This document shows, in pieces, positions 1 through 46,500 of a stretch of 64,000 nt of DNA; positions within the stretch are counted from its first letter, which is position 1; every line of letters begins with the position of its first letter. Made by a program: the position numbers and the translations under genes. The stretch is from Escherichia phage vB-EcoP-XT18. The DNA lies in the sequence record OR757434.1; one strand, written 5' to 3'. The notes beneath the pieces were generated by a model. That model made no database searches, was not told the origin of the DNA, and was given only the letters and a program-made list of their open reading frames with translations.

Positions 1-18
1 ATCATCTTTTGTAATGGT

Positions 19-213
19 GTGCAGAAGGATGAGGTTTGTCGACAGTTAGGTTTCTTTGTAGATATCTGGATTGACGATTTCCCTGTTGGAATCCCCAAAA
101 AGGACCACCTAGATGGTATGCTGAAGGGTGTAAGACTTAATGACCTTAGGGCAGCACCTCCTGTAGAAATAGCCGCTCCTGTGTACTCTGAAGAGCCTCT
201 GGTGATTCGATGA
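19..213 (+). CDS. hypothetical protein
   Basis: ORF at window edge in co-directional gene block; true start may lie upstream of window; no motif recognised. Confidence 0.25.
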   Translation: MQKDEVCRQLGFFVDIWIDDFPVGIPKKDHLDGMLKGVRLNDLRAAPPVEIAAPVYSEEPLVIR

Positions 214-352
214 AAAAGTATAGTGTATGGTTTAACGAGGTAGAAGAAGGTTTTGATGAAGTTGGTGGATGGGTTAATATCCTAAACACTGATGATATAG
301 AAGAGGCCGAGAAGTGCGCCCTAAACTATAACTCTGGATATTATGAAAGAAA

Positions 353-595
353 TTGGGAATACGAGGAAGAAGTATGATTTGGATTCACACTTATAGAATT
401 GGAAAGAAAGGGCTTACTACTGTTCACACATCTGAAGACAGTGCTAAAGCATCTCAGGCTGTACTGAAAGGAAAGATCACACCTTATGTAGTCGCTGAAG
501 AAAAGAAAAGTCCTCCGGTTCTAGAATATCTAGGAACAGGTAAGGCTTACACAGCACTGGATGTTATTAACAACAAACAAGGAGATGTGGTGTAA
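353..595 (+). CDS. hypothetical small protein
   Basis: ORF in compact + strand block; no motif recognised. Confidence 0.25.
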   Translation: MGIRGRSMIWIHTYRIGKKGLTTVHTSEDSAKASQAVLKGKITPYVVAEEKKSPPVLEYLGTGKAYTALDVINNKQGDVV

Positions 596-799
596 AATGG
601 AATACATTGATAAATACTCAAGTGAAGATTCAAAAGACGCTGAAGTTTTGTTCGTACTGAAAACAGACTGTTTAGAACATGGACAGCTTATCAACTTTAT
701 TGAATTGGCAAAACTTAAAGAAGAAATTGATCAACTATACAGTGATGAGCAATCCAGATTACTTTCCTTGTCCCTGCTAGGTGACTTAACCTGTGATGG

Positions 800-1282
800 T
801 TGCATGATATGATAGAAGATCTTCTGGATGAGTTCTTTGTTTGTGATTTATCATCTGGGAAAGTGTTCTGGAGAATTCACAACGGAACAAAATGCAGGCG
901 GGGTGACGAGGCAGGAACTTCAAAAAAGGATGGAAGAGTGCTTATTCGATTGAAAGGAAGAGCCATTTACAGATACCACATCATTTGGTATTTTGCTAAT
1001 GGTGTTTTACCTAAAGATCAAATAGATCACATTGATCGAAACCCTTCCAACGATTCCATAGGCAACCTTAGAGAAGTTAACAACGAGAATAATTCTTGGA
1101 ACAAGGGTTTGAACTCTAACAACACATCAGGAGCTAAGGGCGTATACCTCAATTCAAGAGGGAAGTACATAGCCAACATACATATTAGAGGTAAAACTAA
1201 ATACCTAGGAACTTTCTCAACCCTAGAGGAAGCCGTCTCTGTTAGAAACAGAGCGGAGGAAGATCATAAATTAACTACCTAA
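800..1282 (+). CDS. HNH homing endonuclease with AP2-like DNA-binding segment
   Basis: HNH-type segment IDHIDRNPSNDSIGNLREV plus C-terminal GVYLNSRGKYIANIHIRGKTKYLGTFSTLEEA resembling AP2 domains of phage homing endonucleases. Confidence 0.55.
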   Translation: MHDMIEDLLDEFFVCDLSSGKVFWRIHNGTKCRRGDEAGTSKKDGRVLIRLKGRAIYRYHIIWYFANGVLPKDQIDHIDRNPSNDSIGNLREVNNENNSWNKGLNSNNTSGAKGVYLNSRGKYIANIHIRGKTKYLGTFSTLEEAVSVRNRAEEDHKLTT

Positions 1283-1291
1283 GAGGTCTTT

Positions 1292-1930
1292 ATGGCTGAA
1301 GTTTATTTTGCAGGAGATGGTCACTTAGGCCATCGAAACATCTGTAGTTTTCGTAAGCAATTTAAAAACATCGAAGAACATGACAAAGCAATTCTGGCTG
1401 CTTTTGACCACGTAACCAAACGTGATAAAGTTTTCTTTACCGGTGATTGGGTGTTTGAAAAGTATGCCCTTGACATCATCGCTGAAGTTAGAGGAGAGAA
1501 GCATCTGGTCTTAGGAAATCATGACAGATTAGAACTTCTCCCTGATATGATGAAAGTCTTCCGTAGAATCTCTGGTGACTTTAAATATAAAGAGTTTTGG
1601 GTAACTCATATTCCTATTCACTCTGATGAAATGAGAGGAAAGTATAATATCTATGCTCATACTCATAATTCTACTATCAGAGATTGGAGATACTTTTGTA
1701 CTTCTATGGAACAGATTGATTACAGAGCTGTGTCTCTGCAAGAAATTCGTAAAGAGTTCGCTGCAAGAAAAAGCATTTTAGAAACTACATTATTTCCAGT
1801 GGGAGATAAAAGTAGAGAGCAATTGGATGAAATCCGAAAGAAGATTCAATTAGAATCTCAAGCAGAATCTAACTTACTTTTTCAGAGAACAGTAGAACAA
1901 ACTAGTTTTAAAGGTCTTTTAGAATGGTAG
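1292..1930 (+). CDS. calcineurin-like metallophosphoesterase
   Basis: Metal-ligand motifs GDGHLGH, FFTGDW, LGNHD, HTH in canonical order. Confidence 0.6.
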   Translation: MAEVYFAGDGHLGHRNICSFRKQFKNIEEHDKAILAAFDHVTKRDKVFFTGDWVFEKYALDIIAEVRGEKHLVLGNHDRLELLPDMMKVFRRISGDFKYKEFWVTHIPIHSDEMRGKYNIYAHTHNSTIRDWRYFCTSMEQIDYRAVSLQEIRKEFAARKSILETTLFPVGDKSREQLDEIRKKIQLESQAESNLLFQRTVEQTSFKGLLEW

Positions 1931-2196
1931 AAGTTATTGTTTTAAGTTAAGTTTTCTTTTGATTTTAATAGAGAATCAAAGTCCTAGGAGTCCTCAACCT
2001 AAATCAAGGATTTCCTCAATTCTCTATTTTTATCTCGCAGGTGTCTCCTGCCCTTCGGTACTTGCAAGGGTTACGATGATTGCCCAATATACAAGCCTGC
2101 AATAGCTTTACTAGCTATACAATATATACATTACTAGTGTGTTATATCTACTACCAAAGATACTTATATTATATAGTACCCTTATCGGTATAAGCG

Positions 2197-2205
2197 TAAT
2201 GTATA
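2197..2205 (+). promoter_or_regulatory. TAATGTATA motif (putative phage-sigma-dependent promoter element)
   Basis: Exact 9-mer about 60 nt upstream of the 2264 ATG; same or near-identical 9-mer recurs upstream of other genes. Confidence 0.3.
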
Positions 2206-2263
2206 CTATACATAACCGCTCAAAGAGAGCAACAATCTTTCAAATTAAATAAGGAAATTAATA

Positions 2264-3010
2264 ATGAGCATGATCCCAACTATCGCAACTTCTTCTCGTA
2301 AATCCAACTACGATATTATCCCTGATGGTGAATATGAAGCACGTATCGTTCGTGTAGTAGGTTTGGGTGTTCACAATCGTGATCCTTGGGTTGACCCGAA
2401 GACCAAAGCAGTAACTCCTAAGAATCCAGCTTTCCGTATGGATTTGGCTTTCGAGCTGATTGGTGTTGATGCTACTGGTAAAGATTCCGATGGTAAGGCA
2501 TTAGAACCACGTCCTGCTTGCCAGTTCAAGAGTTATGATGTAAACCCACGAGCTAAGAACTCTGGTATTCTTGATCTCTGCAAGATGATTGACCCAAGCA
2601 TTCAAGCACTGAAAGGTGATCTGTCTTGGTTTAAGGATGTGTTGTTAGGTCAGCCTGTTAACATTCTGGTTAACTCCTACACTAACAAAGCTGGTGAAGT
2701 TAAAAACTCCATCAAGACCATTTCTCCAATCCCAACCAAATATCGTGCAGCAGTTGGTGAAGCTCGCAGTCCTCTGGTATTCTTCGAACCGTATGCGGAA
2801 ACCGATGAGAACGTAGCATCCTATCAACTGATGTTCCCGTTCCAGCGCAACCTGCTTACTCAAGCTAATGACGCTAAGAACATGCCTCTGGCTGGTCGTG
2901 AAATTACTCGTGCTTCTGAAACAGAGCAGAAAGAAGCTACTCCTTCAATCCCTACGATTGATAAAGAGCCTGCTTCTACTTATGAAGATGACAACGACAG
3001 CCCATTCTGA
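2264..3010 (+). CDS. putative ssDNA-binding protein
   Basis: Strong RBS aaggaaattaataATG; acidic C-terminal tail YEDDNDSPF resembling SSB C-termini; followed by strong terminator. Confidence 0.45.
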   Translation: MSMIPTIATSSRKSNYDIIPDGEYEARIVRVVGLGVHNRDPWVDPKTKAVTPKNPAFRMDLAFELIGVDATGKDSDGKALEPRPACQFKSYDVNPRAKNSGILDLCKMIDPSIQALKGDLSWFKDVLLGQPVNILVNSYTNKAGEVKNSIKTISPIPTKYRAAVGEARSPLVFFEPYAETDENVASYQLMFPFQRNLLTQANDAKNMPLAGREITRASETEQKEATPSIPTIDKEPASTYEDDNDSPF

Positions 3011-3031
3011 TAACTCTCCTTGTTATAGCTT

Positions 3032-3055
3032 AGCCACCTTCGGGTGGCTTTTTTC
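3032..3055 (+). terminator. rho-independent terminator
   Basis: agccacc-ttcg-ggtggct hairpin followed by TTTTTT. Confidence 0.7.
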
Positions 3056-3067
3056 GTTGGAGTCAAT

Positions 3068-3418
3068 ATGCAAAGCACTTTAAGTGATAATCTAGGATTT
3101 GTTATCTTCTCTGCTCTGGTGTTCTTTGGTGGTATGAAGTTTAATGAGTACAGAACAGACAGTAACAATCTGGATAAAGAAAAGCATCAACAAGAGTTAG
3201 AGATTGAAAGAAGTAAGGCAGCTGATGAAGTTGCTCAGAGAGTTCTTACCGGTTTATCCAACTGGAAGAAGAACACGGAAACCGTTTATAAAGAGATGCA
3301 TTATGAGAAAACTAAACCAGTTTTTTATAATGTCTGCGCTAGTGATGACTACATCCGCATGTTCAACGAGCGACAGCAGCAGGCAATCGATGCCCTTACC
3401 AACAAACCTAAAAGCTGA
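3068..3418 (+). CDS. putative i-spanin (Rz-like): N-terminal TM helix plus charged coiled-coil
   Basis: Start chosen at internal ATG with GGAG RBS (track ORF 3044..3418); hydrophobic LGFVIFSALVFFGG then EKHQQELEIERSKAADEVAQ. Confidence 0.35.
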   Translation: MQSTLSDNLGFVIFSALVFFGGMKFNEYRTDSNNLDKEKHQQELEIERSKAADEVAQRVLTGLSNWKKNTETVYKEMHYEKTKPVFYNVCASDDYIRMFNERQQQAIDALTNKPKS

Positions 3419-3559
3419 ATGTAGGGTTGACCTGCCTCTTTTAGAGAGTGCTCAAGGAAAGGCACTAGCCACTACGTTGGAGTGGTATCAGGACCAGTAC
3501 ACAGAATGTGCTGCTAATCACAATGGATTGTTAGAAGCTCTGAAAGAGCGTGGAGTAGA

Positions 3560-3563
<4 letters not shown>
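3330..3563 (+). CDS. putative o-spanin (Rz1-like lipoprotein) overlapping in +1 frame
   Basis: MSALVMTTSAC lipobox-like signal (TSAC) then Pro-containing periplasmic segment; overlaps 3' end of upstream gene as in overlapped spanin pairs. Confidence 0.3.
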
Positions 3564-5049
<1,486 letters not shown>

Positions 5050-5059
<10 letters not shown>

Positions 5060-5664
5060 GTAATGAGCCTAAACCTTTAGTAGTAATTCTTAATGGGCCT
5101 CCGGGTTGTGGTAAGGATACGATAGCTGAGGAGTGGTTACTAAAATCCCACATTGCGTCTTATTCTCGTTATATTAAATCATTTAAAGAGCCTATGTACA
5201 AAGTCGCCTCCGCAGCATTAGGTTTGAACTTGGAGGATTTTCTGGAGTTTTATAAAGATCGAAACTGGAAAGAAAAACCTAGGCCTGAATGGGGAGGTAG
5301 GTCTGTCAGAGATTTAATGATTTCCACAAGTGAAGATTACTTAAAACCTATGTTTGGTAAGAACTACATGGGAACCCAAGCAGTAAATAGTATCAAGTCA
5401 GAAGGAAGGAATCACAATGATGTTATCCTGTTTACTGATGGTGGGTTTGAAGCAGAGGTGAGAGAGCTAGAAAAGTCTTTCAATGTAGTAGTAGTTCAAG
5501 TTCACAGGAATGGTTGTGATTTTTCTGGAGATTCTAGGAATTATATTGAAGGGGAGCAGTTAGAAACTTGTACATTATCCAACAATCGAACTATTTCGGA
5601 AGCTCGGTACTACTTGGATTGGATTATAGCTGAAAATAGAGATAAAGTTTATGGAAGAAGTTAA
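5050..5664 (+). CDS. P-loop kinase (dNMP kinase-like)
   Basis: Walker A LNGPPGCGKDT near N-terminus; size and context fit nucleotide or polynucleotide kinase. Confidence 0.45.
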
Positions 5665-6469
5665 GCTCCCTGAAGTAGCTATAGTGGATGCTGACGTTCT
5701 TCGATATGAAGTGGGTGCTCTTACTCAGGAGCATCCCTTCCTTGACACAGGACGTGTTCCAGTTGATTACAATTTCATGATTGAACGACTTCAGTACAAG
5801 ATAGATACTATAATTGCTCGATCAGGTTGCAGTAAGGTTGTGTTCTACTTCAGCGAAGGTGGTAACTTCCGTTTCGATGTTGCTAAGCAGCAAGACTACA
5901 AAGCAAACAGACCTCCCGGAGAAAGACCTTTCCACTGGCAAAACGTTGGTGATTACATTAAAGGTAAGTATGAATACATAGATGTATTTGGGAGAGAGGC
6001 TGATGATGCACTAGCTGAAAGGCAACGTAGGGATAAGAACACTATCATCTGTACTAGAGACAAGGATTTGTTGATAACTCCCGGATGGCACTACCGTTGG
6101 GCTTGTGGAGAAAGACAGAAAGAAGTTCCTCCTCACTATGTATCTGATTTAGTTTCATGGCAAAACTTCTTCTATCAGATGCTGATTGGAGATGGTACAG
6201 ATAATATCCCCGGATGTGGAGAACGTAAAGAAGTTATGTGGGGCGGTAAGCTTCAGCTTCGACGTCAAGGTGTTGGGAAGAAGGCAGCAGCTAATCTATT
6301 GGCTGGTGTTACAGATAAGTGGACCATGTATCATATAGTACGAATGGAATATTATAAGAGATTTGACATTGAAGATGAAGAGAAGATGCTTGAAAATGCT
6401 CGTCTGCTCTTTGTTGGTCAGACTCCGGAAGACCTGTTCGACTGGACATGGTTAAACAAATCTTGGTAA
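5651..6469 (+). CDS. 5'-3' exonuclease / flap endonuclease
   Basis: LIGDGTDNIPG...GKKAAANLL H3TH-type motif typical of Pol I-family 5' nucleases; acidic clusters DAD, EADD. Confidence 0.7.
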   Translation: MEEVKLPEVAIVDADVLRYEVGALTQEHPFLDTGRVPVDYNFMIERLQYKIDTIIARSGCSKVVFYFSEGGNFRFDVAKQQDYKANRPPGERPFHWQNVGDYIKGKYEYIDVFGREADDALAERQRRDKNTIICTRDKDLLITPGWHYRWACGERQKEVPPHYVSDLVSWQNFFYQMLIGDGTDNIPGCGERKEVMWGGKLQLRRQGVGKKAAANLLAGVTDKWTMYHIVRMEYYKRFDIEDEEKMLENARLLFVGQTPEDLFDWTWLNKSW

Positions 6470-6482
6470 TAAGGATATTATA

Positions 6483-6674
6483 ATGGGTAAATTTGATTAT
6501 CGTTCATATGATGAAAACTCCTCCAATCGTGAATCTCGTAAAGAGCAGCGTATTAAATACAGTCATGAATTAGGAAATCGCTATATTAAAGAAAAGCGTG
6601 AAAAAGTATCACATCGAGTAGATAAACGTGTATGGGAAGAAGATGATATGAGTATAGGTTATGGCGAAGGCTGA
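6483..6674 (+). CDS. hypothetical small basic protein
   Basis: ORF with RBS in compact block. Confidence 0.3.
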   Translation: MGKFDYRSYDENSSNRESRKEQRIKYSHELGNRYIKEKREKVSHRVDKRVWEEDDMSIGYGEG

Positions 6675-7062
6675 GAAGACACGCTGTAGTGGAATGTGGA
6701 CTGAAGCTCGTTACAACTCTTTCATCAAGTCAGGGATTCGTTCTCTGACTAGAAAGTGGAAGCCCATGTTCGATGCACTAGCAGACGCCAAGACAGAGCA
6801 GAAGGTTAATCCAAAGACAGGAAGACTGGCAATGCACTTTAAGTGTGCCATGTGTGGTTCTGACCACCCTGTAAAGGATATGGCTATTGACCACATAGAG
6901 CCTATAGTTCCTCTTGACCATGAAGCAACTTGGGATGAAATCATCTCTCGTGCTCTGTGTGAGAAAGAAGGTTTTCAGGTTCTGTGTAAAGACCCTTGTC
7001 ATAAGATTAAAACAAAAGAAGAGAATGATGCAAGAAAACAATTCAAAAAAGGAAATGAGTGA
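6661..7062 (+). CDS. HNH endonuclease
   Basis: CAMCGSDHP ... IDHIEPI ... LCKDPCH metal/HNH motif set. Confidence 0.5.
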   Translation: MAKAEKTRCSGMWTEARYNSFIKSGIRSLTRKWKPMFDALADAKTEQKVNPKTGRLAMHFKCAMCGSDHPVKDMAIDHIEPIVPLDHEATWDEIISRALCEKEGFQVLCKDPCHKIKTKEENDARKQFKKGNE

Positions 7063-7282
7063 TGATCAAAAATCTACGCAACAAGTGCTTCGCTTTCGCT
7101 ATCGCAATTGGAGAGGCGAGGTTGCTGACCGGTCCGTTATTCCACTCCGAACCTCCGTTGCTAGCTCCCGTTTTCATAACGGTGGCAAACCTTGTTGGAT
7201 TATGACAGCGATAGATATAGAGAAAGATGAGATTCGAGAGTTCAAACTCTCTGACATTATTCAGTATTACGATTTAATCTAG
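7055..7282 (+). CDS. hypothetical small protein
   Basis: ATG with AAGGA RBS overlapping stop of upstream HNH gene (ATGAGTGA); downstream portion of track ORF 6914..7282. Confidence 0.3.
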   Translation: MSDDQKSTQQVLRFRYRNWRGEVADRSVIPLRTSVASSRFHNGGKPCWIMTAIDIEKDEIREFKLSDIIQYYDLI

Positions 7283-7719
7283 GAACTGACATGATCACAC
7301 AAGCAGATAAAAATAAACTCTTCGACTTAATCCACGATCTATTAGAAGCTCAGAGCTTTATTGATAATGTCGAGACTTGGGAGATGGAAGCAGCTGGAAA
7401 AGCTTTTGATGAAAGCGAAGAGAAACTTACTAATTTTATAAACACAATCTAGGAGGGTGTATGAATGAAGGAGTTGTTATTCTTGGCAGTAAATCAGATT
7501 GGTTCTACGGAGGCATCTCAGGATGCTTTGAAGATGAACATCCAGACTTCTGAAGAGAATTGGGATGTATGACGAATTTGATGGTTTTTGAAAAGATAAA
7601 ACAGAGCAAAATTGATATGATGAAAAAGTTCAAAGCGGCTTATGATAAAGCTGTTAAAGAAGGAACTATCACTTACAAGAAAATCTAGAAATAAATAAAG
7701 CCCCTTCCAAGGAGGATTA

Positions 7720-8085
7720 ATGGGAACATGGAGGTTTAGAAAAACAGAGCCATCTAATGTTCGTGGTCTTTGTGTTTTGTGCAACAAGAACCCTCAGAAA
7801 TCAAAGGGTGGTGGAAAGTTTGCACCCTTGTGCTCTCCTTGTAATAAAAGAGAGTATGAGAATATGGATGCACACAGAGAGCGTACTAGAAGGTATAAAT
7901 CACCATATGTAGACTTTAAGAAAGAAGTGTGCGAGATGTGCGGTTTCATCCCTAAACACACTTGCCAATTAGATGTAGATCACATAAATGGTAACCACAA
8001 AGATAACAGAGAAGAAAACCTTCAAACACTTTGTGCGAACTGTCACAGACTGAAAACGTTTACCAATAAAGATTGGGGACGTTAA
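7720..8085 (+). CDS. HNH endonuclease
   Basis: CVLCNK ... CSPCNK ... DVDHINGNHKDNREENLQTLCANCH classical HNH signature. Confidence 0.6.
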   Translation: MGTWRFRKTEPSNVRGLCVLCNKNPQKSKGGGKFAPLCSPCNKREYENMDAHRERTRRYKSPYVDFKKEVCEMCGFIPKHTCQLDVDHINGNHKDNREENLQTLCANCHRLKTFTNKDWGR

Positions 8086-8129: not shown

Positions 8130-11100
8130 TCACTCCTTAGGTCGAACTCTTACACGGAGTCTCGATTGACGCTTACTGCGTTCAAGCTTCTCTGACAATG
8201 AGCCACGTTTAATCTTCGGCTTCCCTTCGTCATTAAACTTCTCCAAGAACTGCAAGTACTCAGTACGATTCGTTGTCTTGTAAGAAGGAATCTTAACATC
8301 AGGGTTCTCTTCAATCACACGTCTCATCTTCGCTACATCATCCCTGCCAAGCAACTTACTCTTAGCCTGTTCAGCTGTAGAACCAAAGATCTTCTCCAGT
8401 GCTCTGGATTTGTTACCACCTGCGGAAGAAGCACCAAGTTTAGCAATAGCAGAATAATCATCAGCACTAAACCAAGCTACCGGATTATCGCCATACTTCT
8501 TCTTGTTTTCAGCAGCAGTCTGCAATGCACGTACAAAGCGACGGTTGTTACCAGCCTTATCTGCACCATGAACCCTGTCTAAAACTTCAGCCACACTAGC
8601 TAACTCATCCAAGCTCTTCCCACTCAAGAAAGCTTTCTCTACTTTATCAGCAAAGACTTCTTCCTGCTGCTTAATACTTTCCAAGATATCAGAATTTGCT
8701 TGAGATTTTTCATCGTCAGGCAGAGCAGAACGAATCTTCTCCATCTCCATCTCTTCCTCTTGCAGTTTCTTAATATCAGAGTCAACCTTCTGAGCTTCCT
8801 CAATAGCCTTCCTAGTATCCGAATCCAAATTATCAATCTTACCTTCAGTATCTCCAGTAACCTTAACAATCTCTTTCTCGATAGGAGTCATTGATTCGTA
8901 CTTCTTAGCAAACTTCTCAACATCAGCCTCGATACGAGAACGAGCATTCTGATGTTCAGTTGGAGTCATAGGCTTCTCAAGAAGTGCATAACGGTTATCC
9001 ATGTAGGAACCAGCAAACGCTTCAGCATCCTCTCTAGATATGCCCTTATCTTCCATAGTACGCACCAGACGGCGATGAATGTCATCACGTTGACGTTGTA
9101 CTGCCATAAGGTCATTCTCACGCTCTTGGGCCGCTTTAAGCTCTTCACTGCGCTTAACTCTCTTGTCCACATCAAACTTACGGTTCATCTCTTCCGCTTG
9201 CTCATACATCTTGTTCCACTTGGCCTGACGAGCATCTTCCTCTGCATCAGTTAAACGACGCTGACGATCAAGGTAATCTGACTCGGCGTTGTGGATACGT
9301 TCAATGTAACTACGGAACTTCTCTGGAGGAACTGGAGAGTTCTTGTCATGGTGAGCAGCCAACTGTTTCAATGTACGAGATTCCTGAGCCTCACGAACAG
9401 GTTTAGGTAAACCTTCCATCATCTTCTCAATCTCACTCTTCTGAGCTGCAATAGCCTCTAGAGTTTTACGTTCATTCTCAACAGCAGCCTTAGCATCTGA
9501 ACGAGCCTGAGCTTTGTTTTTCAGAGTGGCAAGACGTTCTTCACGAGCCTGTAAATGCTTAGCAGCAGCTTCATACTGAGAGTTCTTGTTAGCTTTGTTG
9601 AAGGCATTCACTTCTCTGTTATAGGTGTTAATAAACCCATCCCAAACATCCTTCATCTGACCAACTTCCAAAGCCTCTTCTCTACCAGCCTTCTCTGAAG
9701 ATTTAAACTTCCCATCTACATAATCATTCATCAGCTTACGCATAGCATCTTTCTGAGCAGGACGTAAAGGTTCTGAATCAATCAAAGTGTCAATCTCAGA
9801 CTGAAGCTCTTTCTTCTGGTCAACCAGTTTAGGAGCATCTTTCTTATCAAAAGCTTTGTTCTCTTCTAGAGCTTGTTGATACAGTCTATCAAACTCATCC
9901 TCACGCTGCTTCTGATACAATCTTTCAGCACGACGTTTCAGACTATCCAAGTTAGTAACGTTCCCACCTAAACCTTTCTCTTCAGCACGTAATGCCTTAG
10001 TAGCAATATCTTCTGGCAGACCACGTTCCTTAACCCATTCAGCAAAATTAGTTCGTACAGTGTTGTTCTTAGCAGTAGCAATACCTTGCTGAGAAGACAA
10101 CTGGTTACGAGCCATTTCTTCATGACGTTCAGTGTTGATAGCATTATCTTCCTGACGAATACGACGCATCAATTCCTTAGGATCACCTTTATAAGCCAAG
10201 AAGTTTTCAGCAGTAGCTTTAGCCTTAGCAGCCTTAGAGTACAGAGAACGAGCAAAGCGTTCTGCACGATCTTTAGTAGCCTGACGAGCAGCACTAGACA
10301 TAGCAGCTAAACGTTCTACACCACTTGCCGGTTTAACGTCCTGTACAGCTTCCTTAGGAGCTTTAGGAGCACGGGCAGGTAATGGCTCAGCTTTGACTGT
10401 TGGTTCCTCTACGGTTGGTTCTGGAGCCTGTGCGGCCTCTTCTTGAGCACGTTGCTGTTCCATTGCACGACGTTCCTCTAAAGGGTTACGAGCAGGGAGA
10501 GGTTCAGCCTGTGGAGCTTGTTCGACCGGAGCTTCTTGAGCCTGTGCTGCCTCTTCTTCAGCGCGACGCTGTTCAGCCTGACGGATAGCACGTCTTTGCG
10601 CAACTAAATCACGAGCTGTAAGAGGGGTTTCTTGAGGAGCAGAAGAAGAAAGATTTTCTTCCGTCACAGTACTAGAAGAAGGCTCCCGAACCGGTTCGGT
10701 TTCTACGTCATTTTGCGTCTTAAATTTAATGTCACCAACAACTGGTTCTTCTTCCATTTTAGCACGAGCTTCATCAGCAGTAGACTTAGCACGAGCAACT
10801 TCCAAATCACCACGAGCCAGAGAGCGGATAGCTTCACTGTTAGATTCTTGTTGCTTAACACGTTGAGAGCGAGCACGCTGAGAAGAGAAGCGATTCAGAG
10901 CATACTTAGCAGCACCGAGTGTGTTCATAACCAGACTAGGAGAAGAAGCCTCACGGAATCCATCATCAGTCAGGGACGTCCAACCACGGTCTTGGTTGCT
11001 CATGAACTTAGCTGTATTATTCAGAGTGTAAGCATCTTGAATAGGATTAAAACCTTCAGGCATACCTTTCAGTTTCTTCAACCCACCAATAGCTTTCTTC

Positions 11101-12551
11101 ATCTCTGGAGAAACATTATCAGCCATCTTCTGTAGTTCAGCAGCTTTCTCTACAAAGTTATTAAAGTCTTCACCATCACGAGCTTTGAATCGATTTGCTT
11201 CATTGTAGAAAGTCTTGTAAGCATCAATGAAATCACGGTCAGCTTGTGTACGGTTCTTAATGTCAATCGGACTACCAGTAAAATCACCAGAAGCTCGGAG
11301 AGAAACTAACTCACGATCAAGATTATCCAGAACATCTGTAAGAGCTTTAGTGTTATCCTTTGTGTAATCAGCCATTGCATCTTTCATAGCAACAGCTTGC
11401 TTCTGGTTGTGCTCGTTATCAGCGAATGCTTTACCACGAACTTTAGAAGGAGAAGCCAAAGGATTGAGGCCAGGAATGTTAGAATGTTCTTTCTGAACAG
11501 AAGCAGCTTTCTCGGCACGAGCTTGGTCTGTATTAAGGATGCGCTGAGCAGCAGGAGAGTCTACAGCAACAGCATCTGTGATACGGAATCCGTTCTCATC
11601 CAGAAGGTTAAGGGCAGAAGCGGCGTTAGCAGTTTCAGCTTTAGAGTATGCTTCTTTCAGCTCATCAATGTTCTTAGCACTACGAATTAATTCATCATCA
11701 GCAGCAATGTCAGTCTTTGCATACTCTGGAGTATTCTTAAAGACAGCAGAATCTGGACGACTAATCAAACCATGGACACCACCAACTGCACCACCGAATG
11801 CAGCACCCATAGCGCCTTCTTCAATAGCACCTTCTAAGACATTAGAAAAGGTTGTGTCATCACCATGTTTGTTCTGAGCTTCAGCAGCACCTACAAGAGC
11901 ACCACCTTTAGCACCAGCCACTGCGTTACTAGCAACGTTCTGACCAATACGACCAAGTGTAGACTCAGCTGTACCAACAGCACCCGGAAGGATTCTCTGA
12001 GCTGCATAGTTAGCACCACCAACTAGAGCGGCATCCAGAACAGACTTATCTTCTCCCTCTTCAGGAGTTTGGTCTGCATATGCACGACCTGTCTCACGAC
12101 CTGCAATGATAGCAGCGGCAGCTAATGGGTTAGCAACAGTCAAACCAATATCACCAACAACGCCAGCATATTGCCCAGCAGTTTTACCAATCCCATCCTC
12201 AATCTTATCCATACGATCTTTCAGAAGGTTCTGAGAGTTCTCTTGGATACGCTTACCATAACTAGTTTGTGCTCCAGCTAGATTCTCACCAATCTCAACT
12301 AAACCACCAATACCTTTAGCAGCACTAGCTGCAATGTTTGCACCACCAGATTGAAGAGCATTTGACACACCTTGAGCAAACTCACCTATAGCACCACGTT
12401 CTTCTTGTTGTGGTTGTGCTACTGGTTGTTCCTCAGGAATAGAGCCACCTGCTGCCTTATATTGTTCTCTCATTTGAGCTTGACGCTCCGGAGAGGCATT
12501 CAGATACGCAGGAGCTTTGGAAGCTTCTTCCCACGGTTTAATGTTAGCCAT
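8130..12551 (-). CDS. large internal virion protein (putative ejection/core protein, long coiled-coil region)
   Basis: About 1470 aa; Ala/Gly-rich N-terminal third then long K/E/R/A-rich coiled-coil-like region; start set at ATG with AAGGAG RBS 45 nt inside track ORF 8130..12596. Confidence 0.45.
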   Translation of the reverse strand: MANIKPWEEASKAPAYLNASPERQAQMREQYKAAGGSIPEEQPVAQPQQEERGAIGEFAQGVSNALQSGGANIAASAAKGIGGLVEIGENLAGAQTSYGKRIQENSQNLLKDRMDKIEDGIGKTAGQYAGVVGDIGLTVANPLAAAAIIAGRETGRAYADQTPEEGEDKSVLDAALVGGANYAAQRILPGAVGTAESTLGRIGQNVASNAVAGAKGGALVGAAEAQNKHGDDTTFSNVLEGAIEEGAMGAAFGGAVGGVHGLISRPDSAVFKNTPEYAKTDIAADDELIRSAKNIDELKEAYSKAETANAASALNLLDENGFRITDAVAVDSPAAQRILNTDQARAEKAASVQKEHSNIPGLNPLASPSKVRGKAFADNEHNQKQAVAMKDAMADYTKDNTKALTDVLDNLDRELVSLRASGDFTGSPIDIKNRTQADRDFIDAYKTFYNEANRFKARDGEDFNNFVEKAAELQKMADNVSPEMKKAIGGLKKLKGMPEGFNPIQDAYTLNNTAKFMSNQDRGWTSLTDDGFREASSPSLVMNTLGAAKYALNRFSSQRARSQRVKQQESNSEAIRSLARGDLEVARAKSTADEARAKMEEEPVVGDIKFKTQNDVETEPVREPSSSTVTEENLSSSAPQETPLTARDLVAQRRAIRQAEQRRAEEEAAQAQEAPVEQAPQAEPLPARNPLEERRAMEQQRAQEEAAQAPEPTVEEPTVKAEPLPARAPKAPKEAVQDVKPASGVERLAAMSSAARQATKDRAERFARSLYSKAAKAKATAENFLAYKGDPKELMRRIRQEDNAINTERHEEMARNQLSSQQGIATAKNNTVRTNFAEWVKERGLPEDIATKALRAEEKGLGGNVTNLDSLKRRAERLYQKQREDEFDRLYQQALEENKAFDKKDAPKLVDQKKELQSEIDTLIDSEPLRPAQKDAMRKLMNDYVDGKFKSSEKAGREEALEVGQMKDVWDGFINTYNREVNAFNKANKNSQYEAAAKHLQAREERLATLKNKAQARSDAKAAVENERKTLEAIAAQKSEIEKMMEGLPKPVREAQESRTLKQLAAHHDKNSPVPPEKFRSYIERIHNAESDYLDRQRRLTDAEEDARQAKWNKMYEQAEEMNRKFDVDKRVKRSEELKAAQERENDLMAVQRQRDDIHRRLVRTMEDKGISREDAEAFAGSYMDNRYALLEKPMTPTEHQNARSRIEADVEKFAKKYESMTPIEKEIVKVTGDTEGKIDNLDSDTRKAIEEAQKVDSDIKKLQEEEMEMEKIRSALPDDEKSQANSDILESIKQQEEVFADKVEKAFLSGKSLDELASVAEVLDRVHGADKAGNNRRFVRALQTAAENKKKYGDNPVAWFSADDYSAIAKLGASSAGGNKSRALEKIFGSTAEQAKSKLLGRDDVAKMRRVIEENPDVKIPSYKTTNRTEYLQFLEKFNDEGKPKIKRGSLSEKLERSKRQSRLRVRVRPKE

Positions 12552-12589
12552 AACGTCTCCTTTTATAAATAAAAATGTCCTACCCCCTA

Positions 12590-12598
12590 TATACATTA
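12590..12598 (-). promoter_or_regulatory. TAATGTATA motif upstream of large virion protein gene
   Basis: Reverse complement of tatacatta; overlaps the track's upstream ATG, supporting the downstream start. Confidence 0.3.
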
Positions 12599-12618
12599 TA
12601 GAAGGCAGGACTTAGGTC

Positions 12619-14274
12619 TTATTGAGCGAACCAGCTGGTGTCTTCAACAGCTGATAAAGCACCGTTTAGTTTAGGATTGGTTGCTGCACCACCAACTGCC
12701 TCTTCTGCCTGTTCAGAGAAAACACCGAGTGGGTCATAGAAACCACCAGAAGGAATTGCACGGTTAACCAATGCAGTAGCCCTCTTCTTATCCATACCTG
12801 AACCAATGTACGCTTCGATAGTAGCTCTCTTAGCATCAGCAACACCTTTCATTGCAGATGTATGACCAACATTAGCCTGCTTACGGGCATAAGAAAGAGC
12901 AGAGTCAGTAGGACGCCATCCTGACTTAAGAGCAAACTTGTTGCCAACACGAATGAAGATTGATGGGTCTTCTGCGAAGTGTCCCAAGTCTTCTTCGGTA
13001 AGGGAACGAGTAGCACCGATTTCAGCCCTTGCGGAGTTCATGATAGCCTGCATGTAAGCAGAACGAGCTGTCTGGTAGTCTTTATCTTTAACTGCTTTGT
13101 CAGCCAAATCCAAGTCTTTGTTGGACTGGTTAAACAGACCACCTTTCTCTGCCCACTGCTTAGCAACTGTACCTTCAGCTGTGTTCTGAGCAAGACGAAC
13201 TTCTTTCGGGTTAAAGTTAAAACTCTGAGCAACTTGTTCAGCACGTTCAGCCTTAACTTTATCACGATAACCAATCAACTCTTTCTGACGTTCAAAGTTC
13301 ATGTCAGTTCTCTTTTCAGCAGCACGACGAGTTTCCTCAGCACGTTCACGCATAGACTGCTCTTGAATCTGTTGACGTCTATCCCATTCAGCATTCTGAC
13401 GTTCTTCACGAGCAGCATACAGAGCTTCCTGTTGAAGAGGGTCTTTAGCTTTCATCTTCAGAAGAGAAGGATCACCCTGAGCTATAGCAGCTGCAATTGA
13501 GTCTTGAGAGAAACCTTGTTCAATCAGAGCATCACGGTTAGCTTCCAGTTGCTTTTTAGTCTCATCTTGATTAGCCATCCCCTGACCAATCTGGAATGCT
13601 TCGATAGGAGATTTACCTGACATGATAGAAAGACCTACACCCATTAAACCTGTATAGAAACTAGAGTTCTGATAGAAAGGTTCTTTCTGTAACTTCTTCC
13701 AAGCTTCTGAAGGATCTTTAGCTTTTGCAACTTGCAAGATATCATTGTTAACACGCTCTTGATCTTTAGTACGAGTAGCAGCAGCCATTCCGTCACCGGT
13801 GTCTTGTCCTTGAGCAAGAGTATTAACAACACCTTGTGCTTGTTCAACCTGAGAAGGAGTAAACTCCATAGGACCAGTTTCTAGTGGCTTGGCAGGAGGT
13901 GTCACCGGAAGAGGGTCACTAGGCATAAGTCCAGCATCCTGCAAACCTTGATCAGTAGATAAATTAGGATTAGCTGCTACAGGGGCTGGTGCTCCAATGT
14001 CAATACCCTGAAGACTTGTTGGGGTTCCTTGATTCTGTTGTTCCATAAGACGTTGCTGGAATCCCGGATTCATCATAGCATTCTGATCTTCTTCTGCCTG
14101 AGAGACAAGACCTGCGAGAGATGAAGGTACAGCAGGACGCTGGTACATAGAAACATCCGCTGTCTGAGTAGGTCTAGCCATATAAGGAGAGGCCGAAGCC
14201 GCTCCCGGATTAACACCGTAGAAAGTATTTCTCGGGTCACGACTTCTGACCTGAGCGTAAGTTGTCTGTTGCAT
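12619..14274 (-). CDS. internal virion protein (Gln/Ala/Glu-rich)
   Basis: Position in structural operon; compositional bias; no enzymatic motif. Confidence 0.4.
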   Translation of the reverse strand: MQQTTYAQVRSRDPRNTFYGVNPGAASASPYMARPTQTADVSMYQRPAVPSSLAGLVSQAEEDQNAMMNPGFQQRLMEQQNQGTPTSLQGIDIGAPAPVAANPNLSTDQGLQDAGLMPSDPLPVTPPAKPLETGPMEFTPSQVEQAQGVVNTLAQGQDTGDGMAAATRTKDQERVNNDILQVAKAKDPSEAWKKLQKEPFYQNSSFYTGLMGVGLSIMSGKSPIEAFQIGQGMANQDETKKQLEANRDALIEQGFSQDSIAAAIAQGDPSLLKMKAKDPLQQEALYAAREERQNAEWDRRQQIQEQSMRERAEETRRAAEKRTDMNFERQKELIGYRDKVKAERAEQVAQSFNFNPKEVRLAQNTAEGTVAKQWAEKGGLFNQSNKDLDLADKAVKDKDYQTARSAYMQAIMNSARAEIGATRSLTEEDLGHFAEDPSIFIRVGNKFALKSGWRPTDSALSYARKQANVGHTSAMKGVADAKRATIEAYIGSGMDKKRATALVNRAIPSGGFYDPLGVFSEQAEEAVGGAATNPKLNGALSAVEDTSWFAQ

Positions 14275-25898: not shown

Positions 25899-26030
25899 TA
25901 TTTTCTACAGAAACATCACCTAATCCTAAATTAGATCTAGCAATAGTAGTATTAATTGCTCCTGTACCACCTTTCGAAATAGGAACAATATTTTCTACAG
26001 AAACATCACCTAATCCTAAATTAGATCTAG
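25657..26030. repeat. tandem 90-bp (30-codon) direct repeats, about 4 units, with a 31-bp partial duplication
   Basis: Unit gctcctgtaccacctttcgaaataggaacaatattttctacagaaacatcacctaatcctaaattagatctagcaatagtagtattaatt repeated in tandem; extra 31 bp at 25867-25897. Confidence 0.85.
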
Positions 26031-26901: not shown

Positions 26902-27678
26902 TTATACACGAGAAGTACGAATACCATAAATATCAGGCAAGCTGCTCTGAAGCCGAGTCATGTTATTCGGAATTGCGATAGGTGAACCTGAGTACTCTTG
27001 TTTCTTATTCTGCTCTACCATTTCATCAAGGATAGCTTTTCCTAATGCTGACCATTTCTGAACTCCGTTGTCATCTTGAACAAACAAGCAAGCATGACGT
27101 AGAGTAAAGTACAGAAGAAGTTCTGGTGCGATAGTAAGAATAGCACTAGTGTCTGTGTCTTCATGGAATTCCGGTGGGTCTGCATAATAACTAAGAATTA
27201 CTGAGTTTTCTGCTGGAATCAAAGGACTTCCATCATCAGGGTAATACGGAGTGTCTGCTTCGATGCTAGGATAGAAAATGAAACGACTACCGAAACGAGC
27301 AAAGTTAACAGGTTGATTGTTCCAATGAGATGGGTTAATTGTTCCATGCTGTCTACGATAGCTAATCTCTTCAGGAGATGTTACTTGGAAGATTGTACCA
27401 TCTTTGGCTCTCATCATCCATTGAGCTTCTAAGTAATCAGGAGGAATGTAAGCTACTCCATCTTTAATATCTAAATACACTTCTTTTTCCAGAGGAGGGA
27501 TACGTAAATTACGATAAATCTCTTTCTCTGCAAAGTTAATAAAGTTTGGAATTTGATTAACAAATTCGTCATCGTCCCTATCTGCCCAGAGGGCCACGGC
27601 CTTCTTTAGCCACCCATAGGTATTGATGGGGTATTGAACGTCAGGCAACATAGGATACCTCCTTCCAGTTTGTGCCAT
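26902..27678 (-). CDS. virion structural protein (possible head-tail adaptor or tail tubular protein)
   Basis: Position between capsid and tail fibre genes; no motif recognised. Confidence 0.3.
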   Translation of the reverse strand: MAQTGRRYPMLPDVQYPINTYGWLKKAVALWADRDDDEFVNQIPNFINFAEKEIYRNLRIPPLEKEVYLDIKDGVAYIPPDYLEAQWMMRAKDGTIFQVTSPEEISYRRQHGTINPSHWNNQPVNFARFGSRFIFYPSIEADTPYYPDDGSPLIPAENSVILSYYADPPEFHEDTDTSAILTIAPELLLYFTLRHACLFVQDDNGVQKWSALGKAILDEMVEQNKKQEYSGSPIAIPNNMTRLQSSLPDIYGIRTSRV

Positions 27679-28153
27679 TGATTATCAGGCTTATTGTACT
27701 TGAAGAGACTCCAAACTTCCTAGCTAAAGCTCTAGCTCCGAACTGTCTGTCCCTCGGTTTATAGTTCTCTAAACAGAAAAGAACTTGTTCTTTAGTAAGT
27801 TTGGAATTAGGGTTATCCTCAAGATTTCTTGGTGTTGAGAGTTTTGTTTCATAAGCATGTACACAGTTTTCTTGTTGAGTACACCACTCTAGATTCTCAA
27901 TCCTGTTATCATCTTTTATTCCATTCTTATGGTTGACATAATCCTTCCCTTCTACTTTAGGAAGAAAGAGTTCAGCTATGACCCTGTGCTCTAGGTACGA
28001 TTTCTTCTTGAAGGTTAGTACACGATATCCCTTATTATTAATACATCCAGCACGTTGCCCTTTCTGTTTATTGAATATGTTACTCATAGACCAGAAAAGA
28101 TGCCCTGTATTTGGGTTATATGTAAAAGCTCCTCTGAAATCTGGCATTGCCAT
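27641..28153 (-). CDS. HNH homing endonuclease
   Basis: YLEHRVIAELF ... VNHKNGIKDDNRIENLEW HNH_3-type motif; inserted between capsid and tail genes. Confidence 0.6.
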   Translation of the reverse strand: MAMPDFRGAFTYNPNTGHLFWSMSNIFNKQKGQRAGCINNKGYRVLTFKKKSYLEHRVIAELFLPKVEGKDYVNHKNGIKDDNRIENLEWCTQQENCVHAYETKLSTPRNLEDNPNSKLTKEQVLFCLENYKPRDRQFGARALARKFGVSSSTISLIINGTNWKEVSYVA

Positions 28154-28186: not shown

Positions 28187-28195
28187 TATACATTA
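28187..28195 (-). promoter_or_regulatory. TAATGTATA motif
   Basis: Reverse complement of tatacatta, 35 nt upstream of HNH start, just downstream of terminator. Confidence 0.3.
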
Positions 28196-28222
28196 CACAC
28201 TAGCTTGTATAGGTCTTAAAAC

Positions 28223-35862: not shown

Positions 35863-35889
35863 TTTATACTCCTTCTACATTATCAACAA

Positions 35890-36551: not shown

Positions 36552-36798
36552 CTGTCTCTCCCTTGCTGTAATCTTTATACGTTTCTACTTTGTAAGTGCA
36601 GAATGCTCTAAAGAAGAGCCAACCTAAGCTACTCACATCAATGGTAATATCGAAATCTGTTTCATCATCTAGGTCAACAAGACGACCTAAGCATGTAGCT
36701 TCCATCCCATCTTCAGAGTCACTATTGACTACGAAAGCGTATGTCTCCGTTCTGAACCGAGGCACTATCTCTGATAAAAAGTCTAATACTAAATTCAT
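36544..36798 (-). CDS. hypothetical small acidic protein
   Basis: ORF overlapping start of downstream gene. Confidence 0.3.
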   Translation of the reverse strand: MNLVLDFLSEIVPRFRTETYAFVVNSDSEDGMEATCLGRLVDLDDETDFDITIDVSSLGWLFFRAFCTYKVETYKDYSKGETDE

Positions 36799-36950: not shown

Positions 36951-37344
36951 TAGTCATACTTGATACATCTTGCTATAGAGAAGCAGATGAATAAACAGAA
37001 GACTATTACTAACCAAAAGATTATTTCCATTAAGACCTATCCACCCACGTACTGAATCTCAACTTACCACATTCCTTACACTTCCATGTTGATAGGTAGA
37101 GACCGTGTATTCTTTCATCCCCGTAAGCTTTACGAAGAAGGTAGTAATTGTGCTTACACTTCATCCGTCTAAATACTTTAATTAGATTCATTAAGTTCTC
37201 TCTTAAGCTTATATATAACAGTTCAAAATTCTGATTTGACCGAGTGGGGCTAGGCCCTCTGCGGCGAATTGTTAAAAAGGGGGAGTCCTCAAATAAAAAA
37301 TGGTTATTGGCAATGCCTTTACACCTTCTTCCACGTTCCAACCT

Positions 37345-37750
37345 TTCCCCGTGCCTACTCCCCGTAATTATTCCCCCGTGTATACTACCCAATACATTAC
37401 CTACCCGTTTATTTAGTTCCCCTTTACTGAATGGATGAAAGGCTAGCACTGTATAGGCCAACTGATTAGTCTGCTAATAATGCCATTAATGATGGTCACC
37501 ACTCCCCATAGTTTGAGTGTAAATAGTTTCAATAGTGATTGTTATGAGTGCAATAATGATGTATGTATTAATTAAGTGGATGATTGTGTTTCTTTTAATA
37601 ATTTCTTTTAATTACTTTCTTTTTCAGCGTGCATGAGCGTAGCGAATGGTCTTTGATGTTTGAGTTATACAATTATTTAAGTGGTATATTATTACCGCAC
37701 TATCTGGCAATGTTCCCCCGTGGTCTGTCCTGCGGTTGTATGTTCCCCGT
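37345..37750. repeat. iteron-like direct repeats TYCCCCGT (at least 6 copies)
   Basis: tttccccgtg, ctccccgtaa, ttcccccgtg, tacccgttt, gttcccccgtg, gttccccgtcc; three copies spaced 13-14 bp. Confidence 0.55.
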
Positions 37751-38054
37751 CCTATAGAGATAGTAGAAATATTTTACCCGTAGGACTTGCTTTCTTTATT
37801 AAGAAGTAGTAAATTGTATTCATCGAAGCGAAGCAGTGATGCAAAGTAGCTAGATGGTAGTAAGCTCCATGAAGGATAATCGTCCTAAGTAGTGGAGAAT
37901 GTTTAAAGATAAGGACTCTGCGATTGACTGGTGAAAGCTGGAACACTATCGAGTCAGTGAAGAGGCCAACTGAGCAATGGCCCTACGTATAAAAGAGAAA
38001 TACGTGCTATCTTGTGAAACATGAAACCAAATACACATCAATGAGGATTCACAA

Positions 38055-38546
38055 ATGGCTAAGGTAATGCAGGTAGTTAATCTGGCAAGCTATGTACTGG
38101 TTGCCGCGATCGGTGTTAGTGCACTGGTAACATCTCTTTCTGATAAGGCTATCGCTAGTCCAGCTCCTGCAACTAATGCCGCTGATGTTTTCGCTAGTTC
38201 CATTAATAAAGGTTGGATGATTTGCAACGGTGCGGATAGTGACGGCAATACCATCGCGTTAAAGATGAAATTTAGTAACGTAACAAATGAAGGCGTTCTC
38301 TTTCAATCTAAGACGTTGGACGGTCAGCCTAACAGTGATCTGGTACTCAAGCGTGCTGATAATGATGCGGATATGGTGACGTTCGGCACTGTACAACGTT
38401 ATGAAGACGTTAAAGCTGTTACCAATCTTGTGAGCTACGGTCCGGTCAATGAGTCGATGATTGCTACCACTGTTTACAATAACGCTGATAATGCTGTTTA
38501 CACTGTTCACGTTAATCTAGCCAACTGCATCAAGGCCAGTAAATAA
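38055..38546 (+). CDS. secreted/membrane-anchored early protein
   Basis: N-terminal hydrophobic signal-like segment; first gene of rightward early operon. Confidence 0.4.
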   Translation: MAKVMQVVNLASYVLVAAIGVSALVTSLSDKAIASPAPATNAADVFASSINKGWMICNGADSDGNTIALKMKFSNVTNEGVLFQSKTLDGQPNSDLVLKRADNDADMVTFGTVQRYEDVKAVTNLVSYGPVNESMIATTVYNNADNAVYTVHVNLANCIKASK

Positions 38547-38572
38547 ATAACCTATTCTTGGGAGTGTAAAAC

Positions 38573-38824
38573 ATGGCTATCAAAGAAGTTAAATTATCTA
38601 GCGGGTTTTCTTGTTTTGTTTGTGATACTTTTATTGCGTTCAGCTTGAAAGAAGATGATGTGATAATCCCTGCCGTTGCTTTTTGTTCCATGAGTTTTAA
38701 CGAGGCCAAAAAATGGCTTCAATTGGTGCGCATTGATATTAATCGCGATGACTTCCGATCAATCTATGTTGACGGTGATTTGTCGCTTTCTGGTCTTCTT
38801 GAGATTGATTTGCCTAAATGGTGA
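38573..38824 (+). CDS. hypothetical small protein
   Basis: ORF in compact operon. Confidence 0.3.
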   Translation: MAIKEVKLSSGFSCFVCDTFIAFSLKEDDVIIPAVAFCSMSFNEAKKWLQLVRIDINRDDFRSIYVDGDLSLSGLLEIDLPKW

Positions 38825-38835
38825 GGGATTGATTC

Positions 38836-39045
38836 ATGGTCAATGGCGTTGTTGTTAATGATAGCGTAACTATCTTTGATAATGTTGTGTCAGTTGCAAG
38901 TAGTCGCGGTGAAAGTCGTGTACCGCTTGCCATATTGTGCAACCTTTCGGAATTTAGCGCACGAATTACGGTTGCTTATTTAGGCGGCACTTTATCCGGC
39001 CCTGAATATGTATCTATGCTCAAATACAATAAGGAGTGGTCTTAA
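38836..39045 (+). CDS. hypothetical small protein
   Basis: ORF in compact operon. Confidence 0.3.
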   Translation: MVNGVVVNDSVTIFDNVVSVASSRGESRVPLAILCNLSEFSARITVAYLGGTLSGPEYVSMLKYNKEWS

Positions 39046-39308
39046 TGGCTAAAGAGTACAGCTTTACCATCCCGACTCATAACTATGGTGAGATTGATTT
39101 CTCATACACTGATAACTCTGACATGTGTTTAATCCTGTTTACTAGTGGCGATAAGACTAATGCGGTTGAATTTCCTGCCGTTGCTCTAATCATGGATGAC
39201 GTTATAGCAGGTCAGTATCTGGCGCAACGTGGGATTCTCCTTTCTCTGGAAGAGATCGAACTACTTAGCGTAGCAGTTTTTGGTGAGGGTAACAGTGATG
39301 ATTCATGA
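39036..39308 (+). CDS. hypothetical small protein
   Basis: AAGGAG RBS, overlapping start/stop. Confidence 0.3.
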   Translation: MVLMAKEYSFTIPTHNYGEIDFSYTDNSDMCLILFTSGDKTNAVEFPAVALIMDDVIAGQYLAQRGILLSLEEIELLSVAVFGEGNSDDS

Positions 39309-39488
39309 CTATTTTTGGCGGTGCTTATTCGTTGTTACAGTGGCGTCATTCGTCGCTGATATGCTTTATTCTTACATCCTTTGAGGTCCGGTTGTGTTAT
39401 TTCTGTTTTTGTTTGTCGTTGGCTTCATTTCTTTAAACTATTTATTGATTGTTGCCGCTTTCGATATTCTTAAACTTATTATTGAAGG

Positions 39489-39863: not shown

Positions 39864-39942
39864 TCCTTGTGGGCCTGTTCTTTTTGACCATTGTCGGTGC
39901 AATGGGCCTTTTCTATGCTGTCATAATGTTAGGAGTTTAAAA

Positions 39943-40602: not shown

Positions 40603-40630
40603 TTGACAACTGGAAAGCCTAACCTATAAT
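40603..40630 (+). promoter_or_regulatory. near-consensus sigma70 promoter (TTGACA-16 nt-TATAAT)
   Basis: tatTTGACAactggaaagcctaaccTATAATgagc in ORF-poor region. Confidence 0.5.
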
Positions 40631-42908: not shown

Positions 42909-42932
42909 GTAAGACAATCTAAATAAACATAA

Positions 42933-46492: not shown

Positions 46493-46500
46493 TAAATAAA

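Follow-up and report, generated by a model that had tools for sequence, protein, structure and literature searches.

Predicted promoters for a phage-encoded sigma factor in Escherichia phage vB-EcoP-XT18, with a plausible divergent candidate opposite P40

The nine-nucleotide sequence TAATGTATA at positions 2197-2205 (+) of the DNA of Escherichia phage vB-EcoP-XT18 recurs ahead of genes on both strands, and this raises the question of what such an element is for and what reads it. An earlier note, made from the letters alone, took these sites for candidate promoters of the phage's own sigma factor, and the exact copies it named at 2197-2205 (+), 12590-12598 (-), and 28187-28195 (-) are indeed all present, as is the near-match TAATGTAGA at 35874-35882 (-). 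Here, we conclude with high confidence, from comparison with phiEco32, that TAATGTATA would act as the -10-like element of promoters read by the E. coli RNA polymerase (RNAP) core together with a sigma factor orthologous to gp36. This mapping of the TAATGTATA sites as gp36 promoters is right, but it has already been published for the phiEco32 group. What the locus adds is a further exact copy, on the opposite strand and facing away from the first, which we discuss below as a candidate promoter of the same type.

The window (the whole stretch of DNA analysed, 64,000 nucleotides of record OR757434.1) is, by its sequence, a Kuravirus (phiEco32-like) genome. Its first 12 kb match Escherichia phage vB-EcoP-XT32 over their full length with 99.2% identity, and this part also matches some 90 further Escherichia phages belonging to the phiEco32 group (Kuravirus, Gordonclarkvirinae). 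IMG/VR offered only about six relatives and thereby little added breadth. The window runs in reverse complement to the phiEco32 reference (NC_010324), with its order circularly permuted, and it omits about 12.6 kb of the genome, equivalent to phiEco32 positions of about 38000-50000. Two of the promoters known from phiEco32, P58 and P68, lie outside the 64-kb window. A copy of P58 is carried by XT32, which is 99% identical to the window where the two overlap; the XT32 record contains no AAATGTATA and a single GGTAGTAGATA box, such that a P68-type site is absent, and its gene 67/68 region, outside the window, is rearranged in appearance. The general layout of the window and the coordinates of the features discussed here are collected in Table 1. 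Within the early region, two stretches at 41026-41999 (about 970 nt) and 49331-49877 (about 550 nt) hold no open reading frame (ORF) of at least 35 aa on the transcribed strand.

Table 1. Gene blocks, promoters, and associated features in the 64-kb window; predicted starts number the 9-mer as -15 to -7
Feature	Position	Strand	Predicted start	Start codon; leader	Details
Middle genes	1-8085	+			
Non-coding block	1953..2060				Nearly invariant, about 110 bp; downstream of P40as
Stem-loop	2118 to 2100	-			6 bp, AUAGCU-AGUAAAG-...-AGCUAU type; begins at predicted P40as +1
P40as, candidate gp36-type promoter	2125..2157; TAATGTATA 2133 to 2125	-	about A2118		Exact copy, divergent from P40
P40 orthologue, middle	2175..2205; 9-mer 2197-2205 (-15 to -7)	+	about A2212	ATG 2264; 52 nt	phiEco32 36632-36640(-), 1 mismatch in 30 nt upstream
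Phage sigma factor, gp36 orthologue	4026..4670	+			213/214 identical to phi32_36
Late and structural genes	8130 to about 37200	-			
P26 orthologue, late	12590..12621; TAATGTATA 12598 to 12590	-	about G12583	ATG 12551 (1473-aa virion protein); 32 nt	phiEco32 26014-26022(+), few upstream substitutions
TAAGACCTA of P26	12621 to 12613	-			
P13 orthologue, late	28187..28218; TAATGTATA 28195 to 28187	-	about G28180	ATG 28153; 27 nt	phiEco32 9101-9109(+), 1 mismatch in 30 nt upstream
TAAGACCTA of P13	28218 to 28210	-			
P6 orthologue, late	35874..35882; variant TAATGTAGA	-	about A35867	ATG 35862; 5 nt	phiEco32 1677-1685(+), 1 mismatch in 30 nt upstream
Non-coding region, 1.2 kb	between late and early genes				Contains terminal-repeat homologue
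Early genes	from 38055	+			
gp79 orthologue	60975..61223	+			82/82 identical to phi32_79

In phiEco32, as far as the later papers and a supplement that cite Pavlova et al. 2012 relay its promoter details, six gp36-dependent promoters have been mapped, belonging to genes 6, 13, and 26 (late) and 40, 58, and 68 (middle), and all six share the single consensus tAATGTAtA with transcript starts 6-8 bp downstream (PMC8948821; PMC4331800; PMC4281155). Table S3 of Lavysh et al. 2022 (PMC8948821) gives P6 as TAATGTAgA, P13, P26, P40, and P58 as TAATGTATA, and P68 as aAATGTATA, and reports the six promoters as conserved in five further phages. The earlier note had described the motif as an element of the late promoters of phiEco32-type phages; this stands for the late promoters, but not for these alone, as middle promoters carry it too, including the very site at 2197, which is P40. 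More recently, the cryo-EM structure of E. coli RNAP with gp36, gp79, and promoter P68 (PMC12276001, Xu et al. 2025) placed AATGTA at -14 to -9, with base contacts to A-14, A-13, T-12, and G-11 made by N95, S91, S94, E79, and H80 of gp36, and with W90 and Y83 stacking at the fork. Further upstream, G-37 and A-34 are contacted by R187 and Y186 of the gp36 C-terminal domain, and mutating the contacted positions reduced or abolished transcription (PMC12276001). In the same study, gp79 displaced or inhibited sigma-70, shut off its transcription, and stabilised the gp36 open complex as a co-activator, and P26 was transcribed in vitro by the gp36 holoenzyme (PMC12276001).

Both proteins are encoded in the window. 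The sigma-like gene claimed at 4023..4670 turned out to be that of gp36 itself, with the listed ORF beginning one ATG too early, at 4023, and its product gives a full-length match to PDB 9m7y chain F (E = 2.6e-145) and matches PHROG 1740 ("RNA polymerase sigma factor"). With Pfam Sigma70_r2, its score of 19.1 bits stays below the cutoff of 24, which fits a distant homologue. The sole change from phiEco32 gp36 is K28R, located away from the DNA, and all DNA-contact residues (E79, H80, Y83, R84, W90, S91, S94, N95, Y186, and R187) are retained in an alignment against those of the cryo-EM structure (PMC12276001). Given this near-identity, the sigma N-terminal domain in XT18 would read A-14, A-13, T-12, and G-11, with melting nucleating from -11, while its C-terminal domain would touch the purine at -37 and the A at -34; gp79 would displace sigma-70 and stabilise the gp36 open complex; and transcripts would start about 7 nt past the motif. 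The P40 site would then drive gp40 and the genes up to that for the sigma factor, P26 the 1473-aa virion protein, P13 the HNH, tail, and lysis block, and P6 the packaging and head genes.

Scanning the window and phiEco32 with the same pattern gave one-to-one sites that differ by 0-4 substitutions over the 30 nt preceding the 9-mer, and each of the four elements is co-oriented with a downstream middle or late gene whose start codon lies 11-58 nt away. With four sites orthologous to mapped phiEco32 promoters, near-identical flanks, and gp36 encoded in the same window, the proposal of phage-sigma promoters is well founded for these, though the labels "SSB-like" and "small terminase" that had been attached to two of the downstream genes find no backing in Pfam or PHROGs. 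In an alignment of the sequence ahead of gp40 from 10 phages, extended to 16 by direct extraction, the 9-mer of P40 is unchanged in 16/16 while the adjacent bases vary; the A at -34 (position 2178) is kept in all 10 of the smaller set, and -37 varies. For their part, P6, P13, and P26 are conserved in phiEco32, XT32, and SU7, the last of which is annotated in its paper and record with BPROM and PhagePromoter predictions only and with no gp36 sites. At -37 to -34, the five window sites read AGTA (P40), GGTA (the divergent copy, P40as), AAGA (P26), AAGA (P13), and GGGA (P6), which amounts to a purine at -37 and A at -34 in five of five.

Two kinds of upstream box can be told apart. Exactly 14 nt ahead of the 9-mer, both P13 and P26 carry TAAGACCTA in the window, phiEco32, XT32, and SU7, a sequence that is itself common (7 copies in phiEco32), and P68 and P40as carry a GGTAGTAGATA box instead. 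We consider that TAAGACCTA-N14 in P13 and P26 and GGTAGTAGATA in P68 and P40as may represent class-specific upstream elements.

The surroundings of the late promoters also bear on how the downstream genes are annotated. The listed ORF 8130..12596 starts at an ATG inside TAATGTATA of P26, but the true start, which has a ribosome-binding site, is the one in Table 1, and the resulting length is that of phiEco32 gp26. A terminator hairpin with a T-run (about 28247 to 28224) is found just upstream of P13, and an intrinsic terminator detected in our scan (35913 to 35898) directly precedes P6. Downstream of P13, a gene for an HNH_3 endonuclease (170 aa; 27641-28153, -) interrupts the gp13 virion-protein gene after its codon 5; the insert uses the gp13 start codon, ribosome-binding site, and P13 promoter (MAMPD...), and gp13 (26902-27678, -) restarts with a new N-terminus, MAQTGRRYPMLPDVQYP..., an arrangement absent from phiEco32. 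As for P6, its predicted start falls downstream of the AGGAG Shine-Dalgarno sequence, which would leave gene 6 nearly leaderless, and the same layout is seen in phiEco32. A transcript that excludes the Shine-Dalgarno sequence, as predicted here, would be unusual.

Placed beside known systems, XT18 is closest to phiEco32, with which it shares tAATGTAtA, the genome positions, the sigma factor, gp79, and four direct orthologues among the promoters. It differs in that P13 of the window would first drive the inserted HNH endonuclease gene, and P40as points away from any gene, unlike the listed promoters. A more distant likeness is with phage T4, whose late promoters (TATAAATA) are read by gp55 with gp33 and the gp45 clamp. 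There too, a small, divergent phage sigma factor reads a dominant -10-like element, and a co-activator replaces functions of sigma region 4; however, the T4 late promoters involve no -35 contact, and their activation is coupled to the sliding clamp. In phiEco32, unlike T4, positions -37 and -34 are touched by the C-terminal domain of the sigma factor, and gp79 serves as co-activator (PMC12276001). Phages 7-11 and GAP52 likewise place a phage-encoded sigma factor (SaPh711_gp47) on the host core enzyme, and their late promoters have the bipartite motif GTAAtg-N16-aCTA, but the 7-11 sigma factor is 15% identical, and the phage has no gp79 homologue and no middle class (PMC8948821). The XT18 element does not belong to this bipartite type. 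Among relatives of 82-90 kb (gp40 67-69% and sigma about 53% identical, with H80N), either TAATGGATA or AAATGGATA stands upstream of the gp40 homologue, the element lying at about 2876-2890 (+), and GGTA is retained at -37 to -34. This pattern suggests that the sigma factor co-varies with promoter position -10. Taken together, TAATGGATA or AAATGGATA with a 53% identical sigma factor, and a bipartite motif with a 15% identical one, indicate that the element tracks the sigma factor.

The further exact copy of TAATGTATA, overlooked in the earlier note, occupies 2125-2133 (-). This site, P40as, faces away from P40 at a distance of 63 bp within a 333-bp intergenic region. Its -35 box, TTGGTAGTAGATAT at 2157 to 2144, puts a G at -37 and an A at -34 and is identical to the -35 region of phiEco32 P68, the promoter used in the cryo-EM work (PMC12276001), with the same spacing of 11 nt after GGTAGTAGATA. 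None of the 16 phages has a broken -10 element or -35 core (GGTAGTA) at P40as, and the full GGTAGTAGATA box is found in 14, with ES17 and SDYTW1 carrying GGTAGTATATC; the spacer occurs as 11 different sequences, yet its length is 11 nt throughout. The six published phiEco32 promoters also served to build a position weight matrix (PWM), with which we scored the window; shuffled sequences gave maxima of 11.7-16.1. Five window sites stood clear of this range at 16.6-18.4, and the high scores of four of them are partly circular given that the matrix was trained on their phiEco32 orthologues. P40as, on which the matrix was not trained, scored 18.0, second only to P40.

As to what P40as would transcribe, a small-ORF scan found no credible gene downstream, and hence no co-oriented gene at an orthologous position to set beside those of the other four promoters. 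Immediately at the predicted start, the minus-strand RNA would begin with a 6-bp stem-loop (Table 1) in which 97.6% of the cells are paired across the alignment. Two of its pairs show compensatory double changes (C-G to U-A or A-U, and U-A to G-C), the covariation score was reached by none of 500 shuffles, and all slid registers collapse. Moreover, a change from G-C to G-U in phiEco32 and ES17 still pairs on the minus-strand RNA, but on the plus strand it makes an A-C mismatch; this variant is probably a single evolutionary event. Past the stem-loop, the nearly invariant block at 1953-2060 is unchanged in 10 phages even where the adjacent segment is replaced, and it holds a 10-bp inverted repeat (AATAGAGAAT / ATTCTCTATT) along with a small GCAGG..CCTGC hairpin. 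In the region downstream of P40as, Rfam returned only a miRNA match at chance level (E = 0.23; 19.8 bits, where the gathering cutoff is 84.5), the terminator scan gave no consensus terminator, and single-sequence folds beat shuffles weakly (z = -2.2 for the minus strand and -1.45 for the plus strand). Within the block, a direct repeat at 1975-1995 (+), AGTCCT-AGG-AGTCCT, has both of its copies altered together in phiEco32-type genomes, where it reads AGTCCCT-AGG-AGTCCCT.

On these features of sequence and conservation, we regard P40as as a plausible candidate for an unlisted seventh gp36 promoter, one that most likely fires divergently from P40 into the conserved non-coding region. The promoter lists of PMC4331800 and of Table S3 in PMC8948821, to the extent that these sources set them out, do not include P40as, and a computational search covering only the strand of the downstream gene, as in the published one, would explain its omission. 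Our literature search on phiEco32 and Kuravirus returned no relevant antisense or divergent promoter, transcription-start map, or origin. The fuller reading, to which we would give even chances, is that P40as is a working gp36 promoter missed by such strand-restricted searches, and that it produces a divergent non-coding or antisense transcript, with the stem-loop at its 5' end, that runs through 1953-2060 and possibly on, in antisense, into the upstream phosphoesterase gene. Possible roles include that of a regulatory or antisense RNA, or else transcriptional activation or priming of a replication origin.

Alternatively, the pair at 2125-2133 (-) and 2197-2205 (+) could form a symmetric site for some other DNA-binding protein, as in an operator or a replication origin, in which case the minus-strand copy would not be a working promoter. 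The arrangement of two exact 9-mers facing apart in one short intergenic region lends itself to this, as do further partial copies at 2116-2124 and 2207-2215, and the want of a downstream gene or terminator for the minus-strand copy, together with its absence from the published lists so far as they go, would follow naturally. Nevertheless, a -35 box identical to that of P68, and at the same spacing, has no place in such a model, the spacer varies in sequence and never in length, and the covarying hairpin at the predicted +1 includes a G-U pair that is workable only on minus-strand RNA; the omission from the lists, moreover, is accounted for by the restriction to the downstream gene's strand. 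For these reasons, we judge the symmetric site to be rather unlikely and retain P40as as a candidate promoter.

Another near-match, which the earlier note had put at about 37388 (-) at the head of the leftward operon, does exist, and as TAATGTATT, but its actual position is 37391-37399. As a promoter it does not hold up well. It falls within a segment that corresponds by homology to the terminal repeat of phiEco32; in the record of that phage, the 100 nt in question are present at either end, and the orthologous site is TAATGAATA. Across eight genomes, two haplotypes are seen here in an otherwise invariant block, with TAATGTATT in three and TAATGAATA in five, phiEco32 being among the latter. 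One could read TAATGTATT as a gp36 promoter newly gained in one lineage and driving the leftward operon from within the terminal repeat, seeing that the AATGTA core is intact, that GGGA stands at -37 to -34 as in P6, that the site is co-oriented with the leftward genes, and that three genomes share the allele. Set against this, the last position is T where all six mapped promoters have A, most of the relatives carry TAATGAATA, the PWM score (14.0) falls within the shuffle maxima, and conservation in the otherwise invariant block is lowest at the motif itself, where a promoter footprint would have it highest. Hence, we consider a newly gained promoter at this site improbable. The block itself (about 37330-37445, -) is homologous to the 193-bp terminal repeat of phiEco32, contains ACGGGG(G/A)A repeats, and is almost invariant in the eight genomes, its linked substitution cluster giving the two haplotypes TAATGTATTGGGTAG and TAATGAATAGGATGG.

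Two other near-matches were considered as candidates and rejected. That at 45105 (+), GAATGTATA, falls inside a coding sequence, is missing from SU7, and scores no better than chance with the PWM (13.8, also within the shuffle maxima), and that at 3951 (+), TAATGTTTA, upstream of the sigma gene, has a broken core and is coding. In the published work, a sigma-70 promoter is placed upstream of the sigma gene (PMC8948821; PMC4281155).

Given that TAATGTATA(TA) amounts to TG followed by a TATA-rich hexamer, it might also be asked if host sigma-70, independently of the phage sigma factor, uses these sites as promoters of the extended -10 type (TGnTATA-like). A scan of the P40 and P6 regions for TTGACA-N16-18-TATAAT (at least 9/12) found a weak 9/12 match that overlaps P40as (2150 to 2121), but none at P40 or P6. 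In addition, the dependence on gp36 (PMC8948821), the base contacts to AATG in the cryo-EM structure, and the shut-off of sigma-70 transcription by gp79 (PMC12276001), a protein 100% conserved in the window, all speak against it. We therefore hold a host sigma-70 origin for these sites to be very improbable and keep to gp36 as the factor that would read them.

A genome-wide count against expectation had been proposed as a check on the motif, and when run it gave four exact copies of TAATGTATA where 0.62 were expected from dinucleotide shuffles; one of 100 shuffles attained four. All four copies are in non-coding DNA, which makes up about 12.6% of the window under a conservative ORF mask; a naive coding mask (ORFs of at least 35 aa, TTG starts allowed) had put two real promoters within "genes", and the stricter one was substituted for it. 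As a 9-mer, TAATGTATA is the joint most frequent in the non-coding DNA of the window, where the low-complexity TAAAAGAAA likewise has four copies. The one-mismatch class shows no enrichment over the whole window (16 found against 20.5 expected), and it follows that the motif alone is no predictor of promoters and that the signal is limited to the exact copies and the P6-type variant. That the copies are merely an AT-rich 9-mer arising by chance in AT-rich intergenic DNA, and without function, would agree with the one-mismatch count being at or below expectation, with the one shuffle that yielded four copies, and with the equal tally of TAAAAGAAA, but the wholly non-coding placement of the exact copies, the orthology to experimentally mapped promoters, and a 9-mer constant in 16 of 16 phages while neighbouring bases vary leave this with practically no likelihood, the orthology and the phylogenetic footprint effectively excluding it.

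The main value of these results is the correct annotation of the middle and late transcription units in XT18. Beyond this, the class-specific upstream boxes, if real, could help explain the timing of middle versus late expression. The question of P40as is one that suits an in vitro test, as the proteins and the assay already exist. If P40as is real, it would matter modestly, adding to the well-studied model of sigma switching in these phages either an origin-associated promoter or a transcript that is non-coding or antisense.
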